Positions 38,442 to 48,273 of a DNA stretch of 64,000 nucleotides are shown here, piece after piece. Location: assembly GCF_003334305.1 (NCBI RefSeq), contig NZ_QOWS01000006.1; one strand, 5' to 3'. Position 1 is the first letter of the stretch. Each line of letters begins with the position of its first letter. The DNA is from Escherichia coli. Its GTDB lineage: Bacteria > Pseudomonadota > Gammaproteobacteria > Enterobacterales > Enterobacteriaceae. The notes under the pieces were generated by a model, which had not been told where the DNA came from, searched no databases, and saw nothing but the letters and a program-made list of their open reading frames with translations. A program made the translations under genes and the position numbers.

Positions 38442-38479
38442 TTTGCACCTCAAAAAAGAGTGGCAAAGGACTTGAGAAG

Positions 38480-38565
38480 GAGCCTCAAATCCCTTCGCCG
38501 GCGTTATCCGGATCAGGTTCGACGGGTATTTTCTCAGCGCACGCGTTTGCGTGGCACCCCGTTGA
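38480..38565 (-). ncRNA. TPP (thi-box) riboswitch in the thiBPQ 5' leader
   Basis: Minus-strand GGGGTGCCACGCAAACGCGTGCGCTGAGAAAATACCCGTCGAACCTGATCCGGATAACGCCGGCGAAGGGATTTG carries the conserved CUGAGA and ACCUGAUCNGGAUAAUGCC-like thi-box. Confidence 0.85.
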
Positions 38566-38604
38566 GAACGGCGTTAGTGTAGTGATTTTGTTATCTACCA
38601 GCAA

Positions 38605-40327: not shown

Positions 40328-40554
40328 GATGAAGCAAGGGGGTGCCCCATGCGTCAGTTTTATCAGCACTATTTTACCGCGACAGCGAAGTTGTGCTGGT
40401 TGCGTTGGTTAAGCGTCCCACAACGATTAACCATGCTTGAAGGACTGATGCAGTGGGATGACCGCAATTCTGAAAGTTGACTTGCCTGCATCATGTGTGA
40501 CTGAGTATTGGTGTAAAATCACCCGCCAGCAGATTATACCTGCTGGTTTTTTTT
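40328..40554 (+). ncRNA. sgrS: sugar-phosphate stress small RNA SgrS (Hfq-dependent, dual-function)
   Basis: Starts GATGAAGCAAGGGGGTGCCCC...; contains the base-pairing segment GAGTATTGGTGTAAAATCACCCG and ends in the terminator hairpin CCAGCAGATTATACCTGCTGG plus a U8 tract; divergent from sgrR. Confidence 0.9.
40349..40480 (+). CDS. sgrT: 43-aa peptide encoded within SgrS (glucose-uptake inhibitor)
   Basis: ATG at 40349 gives MRQFYQHYFTATAKLCWLRWLSVPQRLTMLEGLMQWDDRNSES; it is the 3' part of track ORF 40181-40480. Confidence 0.85.
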   Translation: MRQFYQHYFTATAKLCWLRWLSVPQRLTMLEGLMQWDDRNSES

Positions 40555-43827: not shown

Positions 43828-46490
<2,663 letters not shown>

Positions 46491-46532
46491 GGTTTGGGTC
46501 CTTGTCTCTTTTAGAGCGCCTCGCTTCGGGCA

Positions 46533-46560
46533 TAAAAAAACCCGCGCAATGGCGCGGGTT
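46533..46560 (-). terminator. leu operon attenuator (intrinsic terminator between leuL and leuA)
   Basis: Minus-strand CCCGCGCCATTGCGCGGG followed by TTTTTTTA, 22 nt after the leuL stop. Confidence 0.85.
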
Positions 46561-46582
46561 TTTTGTTTGACTGCGTGCTGGC

Positions 46583-46669
46583 TTAATGCTGGATGCCGCT
46601 CACTCGTCTACCGCGCAAAGAAGATGCGTTTAGTAGTAGTAGACCGATAAAGCGAACGATGTGAGTCAT
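46583..46669 (-). CDS. leuL: leu operon leader peptide (28 aa, four tandem Leu codons)
   Basis: Hand translation of the complement of 46583-46669 gives [28 protein letters not shown]; the four Leu are all CUA; followed by the attenuator hairpin; it is the 3' part of track ORF 46583-46774. Confidence 0.85.
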
Positions 46670-46899
46670 TAAATCAGCTCCAGATGAATGCGATATGCTT
46701 TTAGAGTTACTGGATACAAAAACGGATGTCAACCCTGACGCAATAAAAACGTCCCGCCAGCGTGAGTTCTGCATCCGTAAAATTAGCTAATTGTGCTGCG
46801 GTGGTTAAAGTAAGCGATATTAATTTCTGCTTAACTACCGACGCTTTTCATCGGTTGACATATTTCAGCATAAATTTTTGCATCTAATCAACGAGGAAA

Positions 46900-47150
46900 A
46901 AGGGGACAAAATGCACGCGTTGCAAAACCTATCCTGATGATTTGTATTGAATTATATGTTTTGCGATTTTTTTTGATATTGATTTGGTGAATATTATTGA
47001 TCAATTAATGTTAAGAATTAATGCATTAAATATATAAATTAATTATTAAATAAGCACATTTAATCCATTTTGTAGATGATTGAGTATTCGCGGTAGTTAT
47101 GATTAGATTGTTTTCGCAACAAAAACATTATGGATTATTATGCTGTGGTA
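46900..47150. promoter_or_regulatory. strongly AT-rich leuO upstream region (candidate H-NS nucleation / LeuO autoregulation zone)
   Basis: Runs such as TTGATCAATTAATGTTAAGAATTAATGCATTAAATATATAAATTAATTATTAAATAAG; no coding capacity. Confidence 0.5.
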
Positions 47151-47328
47151 AATGACTCATTCCACGGCAATGGATTCTGTTTTTATCAGAACCCGTATCT
47201 TTATGTTTTCCGAATTTTACTCATTTTGCTTTTTCTTATTTTATATGCATGATAAATCATATTCTTCAGGATTATTTCTCTGCATTCCAATAAGGGAAAG
47301 GGAGTTAAGTGTGACAGTGGAGTTAAGT

Positions 47329-48273
47329 ATGCCAGAGGTACAAACAGATCATTCAGAGACGGCGGAGTTAAGCAAGCCACAGCTACGCATGGTCGATCTC
47401 AACTTATTAACCGTTTTCGATGCCGTGATGCAGGAGCAAAACATTACCCGTGCCGCTCATGTTCTGGGTATGTCGCAACCTGCGGTCAGTAACGCTGTTG
47501 CACGCCTGAAGGTGATGTTTAATGACGAGCTTTTTGTTCGTTATGGCCGTGGTATTCAACCGACTGCTCGCGCATTTCAACTTTTTGGCTCAGTTCGTCA
47601 GGCATTGCAACTAGTACAAAATGAATTGCCTGGTTCAGGTTTTGAACCCGCGAGCAGTGAACGTGTATTTCATCTTTGTGTTTGCAGCCCGTTAGACAGC
47701 ATTCTGACCTCGCAGATTTATAATCACATTGAGCAGATTGCGCCAAATATACATGTTATGTTCAAGTCTTCATTAAATCAGAACACTGAACATCAGCTGC
47801 GTTATCAGGAAACGGAGTTTGTGATTAGTTATGAAGACTTCCATCGTCCTGAATTTACCAGCGTGCCATTATTTAAAGATGAAATGGTGCTGGTAGCCAG
47901 CAAAAATCATCCAACAATTAAGGGCCCGTTACTGAAACATGATGTTTATAACGAACAACATGCGGCGGTTTCGCTCGATCGTTTCGCGTCATTTAGTCAA
48001 CCTTGGTATGACACGGTAGATAAGCAAGCCAGTATCGCGTATCAGGGCATGGCAATGATGAGCGTACTTAGCGTGGTGTCGCAAACGCATTTGGTCGCTA
48101 TTGCGCCGCGTTGGCTGGCTGAAGAGTTCGCTGAATCCTTAGAATTACAGGTATTACCGCTGCCGTTAAAACAAAACAGCAGAACCTGTTATCTCTCCTG
48201 GCATGAAGCTGCCGGGCGCGATAAAGGCCATCAGTGGATGGAAGAACAATTAGTCTCAATTTGCAAACGCTAA
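47329..48273 (+). CDS. leuO: LysR-type global transcriptional regulator (H-NS antagonist)
   Basis: Track ORF 47152-48273 is 5'-extended through AT-rich DNA; the ATG at 47329 ([33 protein letters not shown]) gives 314 aa. Confidence 0.9.

Follow-up and report, generated by a model that had tools for sequence, protein, structure and literature searches.

An Escherichia coli leu operon leader matching the leuL attenuator of K-12 MG1655

Does the region preceding leuA in this strain of Escherichia coli carry a diverged form of the leucine operon attenuator, or the one that is known from strain K-12? The question was raised by a first-pass annotation of the window, that is, the whole 64-kb stretch of DNA (64,000 nucleotides) analysed here, in which it was claimed that a leader with tandem leucine codons and a downstream hairpin form the classic leu attenuation arrangement, and that the leader peptide differs from that of K-12. 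That description gave no strand; the leader and its attenuator are on the minus strand of the window. We conclude with near certainty that the feature is the E. coli leuL leader together with the ribosome-mediated transcription attenuator of the leu operon, identical to that of K-12 MG1655. The leuL attenuator is already known, and nothing about the feature is new.

The leader open reading frame (ORF) is located at 46583..46669 (minus strand, as are all elements of the attenuator below) and consists of 28 codons and a stop, with the ATG at 46669 and the TAA at 46585-46583. A Shine-Dalgarno sequence, GGAG, lies at 46678..46681, 8 nt before the AUG, and either GGAG or GGGG is retained in the genera of our cross-genus alignment (A3). 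Read directly from the window, the four tandem CUA leucine control codons occupy 46631..46642, being codons 10-13 from 46642 to 46631 on this strand, just as the annotation had described them, and the fifth leucine of leuL is encoded by TTG at codon 18. The 12-mer that forms the CTA run (CTACTACTACTA) is present as a single copy in the 64-kb window and is absent from all 100 dinucleotide-preserving shuffles. CTA makes up 3.65% of the 1643 leucine codons in the window's 32 long ORFs, and at this codon usage the chance of finding four CUA codons out of four is ~1.8e-6.

Downstream of the leader ORF is an intrinsic terminator (segments 3:4) at 46534..46564, composed of a 13-bp G+C-rich stem, the loop CAUU and a U7 tract at 46540-46534. 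The hairpin, AAAAAACCCGCGC-CAUU-GCGCGGGUUUUUU, covers 46564..46535, with the U-tract ending at 46534, and its inverted repeat is flanked by an A-run and a T-run. The spacer from the U-tract to the leuA ATG at 46490 is exactly 43 nt long (46533..46491), as originally reported. The 523-aa ORF that begins there (44919..46490, minus strand) encodes 2-isopropylmalate synthase and is annotated as leuA in all matching genomes; it is the first structural gene downstream of the attenuator, and leuB, leuC and leuD come after it. The arrangement of a leucine-codon run followed by this hairpin is not due to chance.

Comparison with known sequences identifies the element. The Rfam family Leu_leader (RF00512) matches 46683-46534 on the minus strand with 145.8 bits (E = 1.7e-33), well above the gathering score of 50, and the model is covered fully (positions 1-148 of 148), with the terminator corresponding to model positions 120-148; the same family assignment was obtained when the whole window was searched. 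Window positions 46440-46900 are 100.0% identical over 461 nt to positions 83479-83939 of K-12 MG1655 (NZ_LR881938.1), and a direct alignment of the leader with that of MG1655 contains zero differences over 261 nt. The MG1655 counterpart is annotated "leuL: leu operon leader peptide" (WP_001300467.1) and is followed by leuA. By exact-sequence look-up, the window peptide also matches the cluster named LPL_ECOLI, so that the feature is E. coli leuL by both its DNA and its peptide. The K-12 leuL (RF00512, LPL_ECOLI) has the same promoter region, ORF, four CUA codons, three alternative structures and leuA start; there is no difference inside the feature, whereas the surrounding genome is ~1.6% different. 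All the parts of an attenuator were found, namely a leader ORF with a Shine-Dalgarno sequence and start codon, tandem leucine codons, an intrinsic terminator and an antiterminator, the last of these in silico. The RF00512 match, the leuL annotation upstream of leuABCD and the mutually exclusive hairpins fully support the interpretation as a classic leu attenuator, and our analyses yielded no evidence against the leuL attenuator assignment.

The alternative RNA structures were predicted for a modelled transcript extending from 46696 to 46534, a leader of 163 nt. This leader folds with -55.7 kcal/mol, compared with a mean of -36.4 kcal/mol (sd 3.45) for shuffled sequences (z = -5.58), and not one of 200 shuffles reaches the energy of the leader. 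The free leader is predicted to fold in two parts, a protector and the terminator (46564-46535), the latter with an energy of -19 to -20 kcal/mol. The protector (segments 1:2, 46596..46659), which is part of the minimum-free-energy structure of the free leader and has -21.5 kcal/mol when isolated, pairs the control-codon region and the codons upstream of it (46659-46638) with GGUAGACGAGUGAGCGG (46612-46596), and within its inner hairpin CGCA pairs with UGCG. The preemptor, or antiterminator (segments 2:3, 46552..46616), pairs GCGCGG at 46616-46611 with CCGCGC at 46557-46552 and encloses a small hairpin; CCGCGC also belongs to the 5' arm of the terminator. In these predictions, the protector, preemptor and terminator share bases and are mutually exclusive, in agreement with the folding of alternative structures that the annotation had anticipated.

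The influence of a translating ribosome was modelled by masking all sequence 5' of the ribosome's leading edge, with the A site placed on each CUA codon in turn, and the preemptor was tested on a transcript that ended before the 3' arm of the terminator. Whichever of the four CUA codons the masked ribosome occupies, the preemptor is the most stable fold (-19.9 kcal/mol) as long as the 3' arm of the terminator is absent. For a ribosome placed at codon 18 or the stop codon, GCGCGG is covered in the masking fold and the terminator alone can form. When bases on either side of the masked zone were still permitted to pair, long-range folds of doubtful physical meaning resulted for CUA codons 3 and 4, and that masking procedure was replaced. 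The in silico folds suggest that ribosome masking would switch the leader between the protector and preemptor states. In the complete leader with the ribosome masked at the CUA run, the terminator is still preferred thermodynamically (-31.7 versus -19.9 kcal/mol), and antitermination must therefore be kinetic and co-transcriptional; we infer that it depends on the order of synthesis, in line with the accepted model.

In this model, the transcript would begin ~27 nt before the leuL AUG, and translation of its 28-codon leader by a ribosome would set in. With ample charged Leu-tRNA, the ribosome would pass the four rare CUA codons and cover or release segment 2, allowing the 3:4 terminator and U-tract to form and transcription to stop ~43 nt before leuA. 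Under leucine shortage, it would stall on the CUA run, masking segment 1 and leaving the GCGCGG of segment 2 free to pair with newly transcribed CCGCGC in the preemptor, such that no terminator forms and transcription reads through into leuABCD. Without any ribosome on the leader, the 1:2 protector would form and transcription would terminate. The response to Leu-tRNA charging in this account is taken from established knowledge and the cited literature. The E. coli leu attenuator goes back to Wessler & Calvo 1981, as cited in bioRxiv 10.1101/2021.05.27.446073. For MG1655, in which the sequence is identical, that report describes pausing at the four CUA codons in ribosome profiling and a 29-fold baseline drop in RNA from leuL to leuA across the attenuator in RNA-seq, as well as an induction of a leuL-leuA'-nLuc reporter under m1G37 deficiency that was 11.5-fold with CUA and 2.7-fold with UUA (bioRxiv 10.1101/2021.05.27.446073). 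In the S. typhimurium leader, changing the three CUA codons to CUG lowers sensitivity (Carter et al. 1986, to the extent that this work is summarised in PMC1183508).

Putative elements of the leu promoter were assigned from sequence upstream of the leader, a -35 hexamer, TTGACA, at 46727..46732 and a -10 hexamer, TAACTC, at 46704..46709, 17 bp 3' of the -35 hexamer (both minus strand). The putative -35 TTGACA is invariant in 7 E. coli (alignment A1) and across 7 genera or species (A3), and the putative -10 sits in the conserved block TATCCAGTA(A/C)C(T/A)CTAAAAGCATATC of A3. These putative promoter blocks are conserved in Escherichia albertii, Salmonella, Citrobacter, Enterobacter, Leclercia and Kluyvera and are invariant in the sampled E. 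coli. A transcription start near 46696 agrees with the position that we take to be the leuLp start of K-12, and it implies a leader of ~160 nt, presumably the published leader length.

A consensus promoter and terminator scan of window positions 46400-47200 reported neither the leu promoter nor the leu attenuator terminator. The putative -10 hexamer TAACTC was missed because the scan demands a T at position 6 of the hexamer. As for the terminator, our guess is that extension of the stem via A/U pairs consumes the T-run for which the scan looks 3' of the stem. We treat both missing calls as a limitation of the scan and not as evidence against the feature, and they illustrate that the rules of such scans can overlook canonical sites. 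The same scan also gave a weak hairpin on the plus strand at 46484-46500, overlapping the leuA start codon.

A comparative scan of one genome per species was carried out with the pattern TGCGCGG-N(40-70)-CCCGCGCNNNTGCGCGGG, which yielded at least 120 loci and at least 121 pattern matches. At least 89 of the matches have a short ORF with a leucine run just upstream, and all 89 belong to Enterobacterales; the remaining matches among those listed, most of them from genomes of high G+C content, arose by chance. In at least 89 Enterobacterales genomes, leuA is preceded by the whole conserved set of CUA run, ORF, protector, preemptor and terminator. A run of three to five leucine codons is present in all 89 of the Enterobacterales leaders listed, as well as in an E. 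coli strain from Marmota that is described below. From the matches listed, 87 distinct leaders (86 species genomes and the window) were assembled into alignment A2. Within these 87 leaders among the matches listed, 262 of the 294 codons of the leucine run (89%) are CTA, 17 are CTT and 15 are CTC, while CTG, TTA and TTG do not occur in the run at all.

Pairing in the same alignment (87 leaders among the matches listed) is strongest in the core of the structures, with the core protector helices paired in 96.6% and 98.9% and the terminator in 95.5%. At A2 columns 62/98, which form the base of the control-codon helix, there is a compensatory switch between UA (42 sequences) and CG (35 sequences). 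Outer helices of the minimum-free-energy fold of E. coli show pairing in only 45-57% of A2, so we place them outside the conserved mechanism. The closing helix of the preemptor is kept in 100% of A2, a circular result since its bases are fixed by the search pattern, and covariation was likewise uninformative as independent proof of the preemptor and terminator, the bases of which are set by the pattern. From A2, RNAalifold recovered nothing beyond the core protector hairpin and the terminator.

At the level of the peptide, the residues conserved in A2 (87 leaders among the matches listed) are G-LLL(L)-N-A and (L/V)-R-G, and the N- and C-terminal residues vary freely. The conserved residues are encoded by the CUA run, by AACGCA, an arm of the inner hairpin, and by UGCGCGG, an arm of the preemptor. 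Since the conserved residues coincide with the CUA run and the RNA arms, constraints on the RNA and codons explain the conservation of the peptide, which thus appears to reflect the demands of RNA structure and control codons and not a function of the peptide itself. The leader peptide of Escherichia albertii is the same as that of E. coli; that of Salmonella enterica subsp. arizonae is MSHIVRFTGLLLLNAFSVRGRRVGGIQH, and its locus (L092) aligns along the whole length of the leader. Leaders of Citrobacter, Enterobacter, Kluyvera and Leclercia have four leucine codons. In Serratia, Yersinia, Erwinia, Pantoea, Pectobacterium, Rahnella and their relatives, the leaders are mostly of the form LL-G-LLL (loci L010, L020, L054, L106 and others), with two leucine codons, usually CUA CUN, then glycine, then three leucine codons, the last of which is in many cases CUU or CUC. 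No glycine codon interrupts the run in the Escherichia, Citrobacter and Enterobacter group, where four CUA codons follow one another directly.

Within E. coli, a megablast search with 46440-46900 found the region in 5400 of 5426 complete genomes, and in 4876 of these 5400 the identity of the 163-nt leader reaches 99% or more. The 26 complete genomes in which megablast gave no match to the region may carry leu deletions, as in some laboratory strains. For three of the 5400 matches, the record carries a plasmid label. The leuL that diverges most within the complete genomes (94.6% identity) is that of strain STEC299 from Marmota (NZ_CP022279.1, L128:88-177); it encodes a peptide of 29 residues and, with five consecutive CUA codons in place of four, represents natural variation in control-codon number. 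Six E. coli genomes were also sampled individually, five of them selected for divergent flanks. The one codon change among these six is a TCT to TTT substitution (S17F) in AH21G053; the other changes are a 1-nt indel in the A-tract before the terminator and a single change downstream of the terminator.

The neighbourhood of leuL in the window strain differs from MG1655 unevenly. There are 31-57 differences per kb at 34-39 kb (thiQPB/sgrR), 1-2 per kb at 40-42 kb (sgrS/setA) and none in 46258-47352, a pattern suggestive of recombination mosaicism, of purifying selection acting on the regulatory region, or of the two together. In the araD-araA intergenic region (~29637-29776), there is a repeat of ~83 nt that is present in more copies in K-12, the window being 116 nt shorter; presumably this is a difference in the copy number of a REP/BIME-type repeat. 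Three other RNA elements of the window score above their Rfam gathering scores: the SgrS sRNA (40328-40554, plus strand, 228.8 bits), a TPP riboswitch upstream of thiB (38472-38571, minus strand, 66.1 bits) and naRNA4/CssrE, a REP-derived nucleoid-associated RNA (22661-22740, minus strand, 75.8 bits).

The view that the leuL peptide has diverged from K-12 through strain- or species-level evolution, with the control codons kept, is one to which we give practically no credence. The window strain is indeed not K-12: over 29693-64000 it is 98.4% identical to MG1655, with 543 differences, and its best 24-kb match is strain A7, not K-12. The peptide that the annotation gave for K-12 (MSHIVRFTGLLLLNAFIVRGRPVGGIQH) and the window peptide also disagree in 7 of their 28 residues. 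However, there are zero differences from MG1655 in the 1,095 bp of 46258-47352, which comprise the leuA 5' end, leuL, the promoter and most of the leuL-leuO spacer, and the leader is among the most conserved stretches of its neighbourhood and not a divergent one. The same peptide, WP_001300467.1, is found in MG1655 and in four other sampled E. coli genomes with divergent flanks. Moreover, the peptide given in the annotation is not that of K-12 at all; it is exactly the Salmonella enterica leader (LPL_SALTY), which shares the architecture, the length of 28 aa, the GLLLLNA..RG core, the terminator core and the position upstream of leuA, and which is reported to have three CUA codons among its four leucine codons in S. 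typhimurium, as opposed to four in E. coli (PMC1183508). The apparent divergence arose because the Salmonella leader was mistaken for the E. coli one. Alignment to K-12 had been named beforehand as decisive, and the exact identity of leuL refutes the proposed divergence. Strain divergence in the leader was also rejected in view of the six sampled E. coli, which show only the minor changes given above.

We regard it as comparably far-fetched that the hairpin and U-tract belong to another transcript, for instance as the terminator of an antisense RNA on the plus strand, with the leucine run being a coincidence. The terminator reads almost as a palindrome, flanked on its two sides by an A-tract and a T-tract, and could in principle end transcription arriving from the leuA-antisense direction; plus-strand positions 46511-46565 score 33.9 bits as a partial Leu_leader, below the gathering score. 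Yet the full-length RF00512 match is on the minus strand only, the run of four CUA codons would hardly arise by chance at the codon usage of the window, and the joint conservation of codon run, ORF and hairpins upstream of leuA in at least 89 Enterobacterales genomes speaks against coincidence. A slightly better case, though still a very improbable one, can be made for a role in trans of the LeuL peptide, or of the ~160-nt terminated leader RNA, in addition to the role in cis. Trans-acting products of an attenuator are documented for trpL of S. meliloti, namely peTrpL and rnTrpL (PMC7298713 and PMC6614838), and the terminated leader is abundant in MG1655 RNA-seq (bioRxiv 10.1101/2021.05.27.446073). 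On the other hand, the conservation of the leuL peptide in the 87 leaders among the matches listed is explained by the RNA and control-codon constraints, its terminal residues are free to vary, and no trans target is indicated by the present data.

The reading as the cis-acting leuL attenuator places the feature beside other amino acid operon leaders. The trpL, hisL, thrL, pheL and ilvL attenuators share its logic, with a short ORF, tandem codons for the end product, 1:2, 2:3 and 3:4 pairings and an intrinsic terminator, but their control codons and sequences differ from those of the leu leader. The Rfam Thr, Phe and Trp leader models match here weakly and via the terminator only, with 19.8-27.6 bits against thresholds of 41-55.

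As a classic, experimentally dissected attenuator that is present in essentially every E. coli genome, leuL has little discovery value, and the useful outcome of this analysis is a correction, in that a Salmonella leader had been confused with that of E. coli and the feature is not a variant. The leu leader is a standard example of the use of the rare codon CUA, and the operon has been called a paradigm of rare control codons (PMC1183508). Our comparative set again bears out what textbooks state, namely that throughout Enterobacterales there is strong selection for the rare codon CUA in the control of leucine synthesis by this leader.
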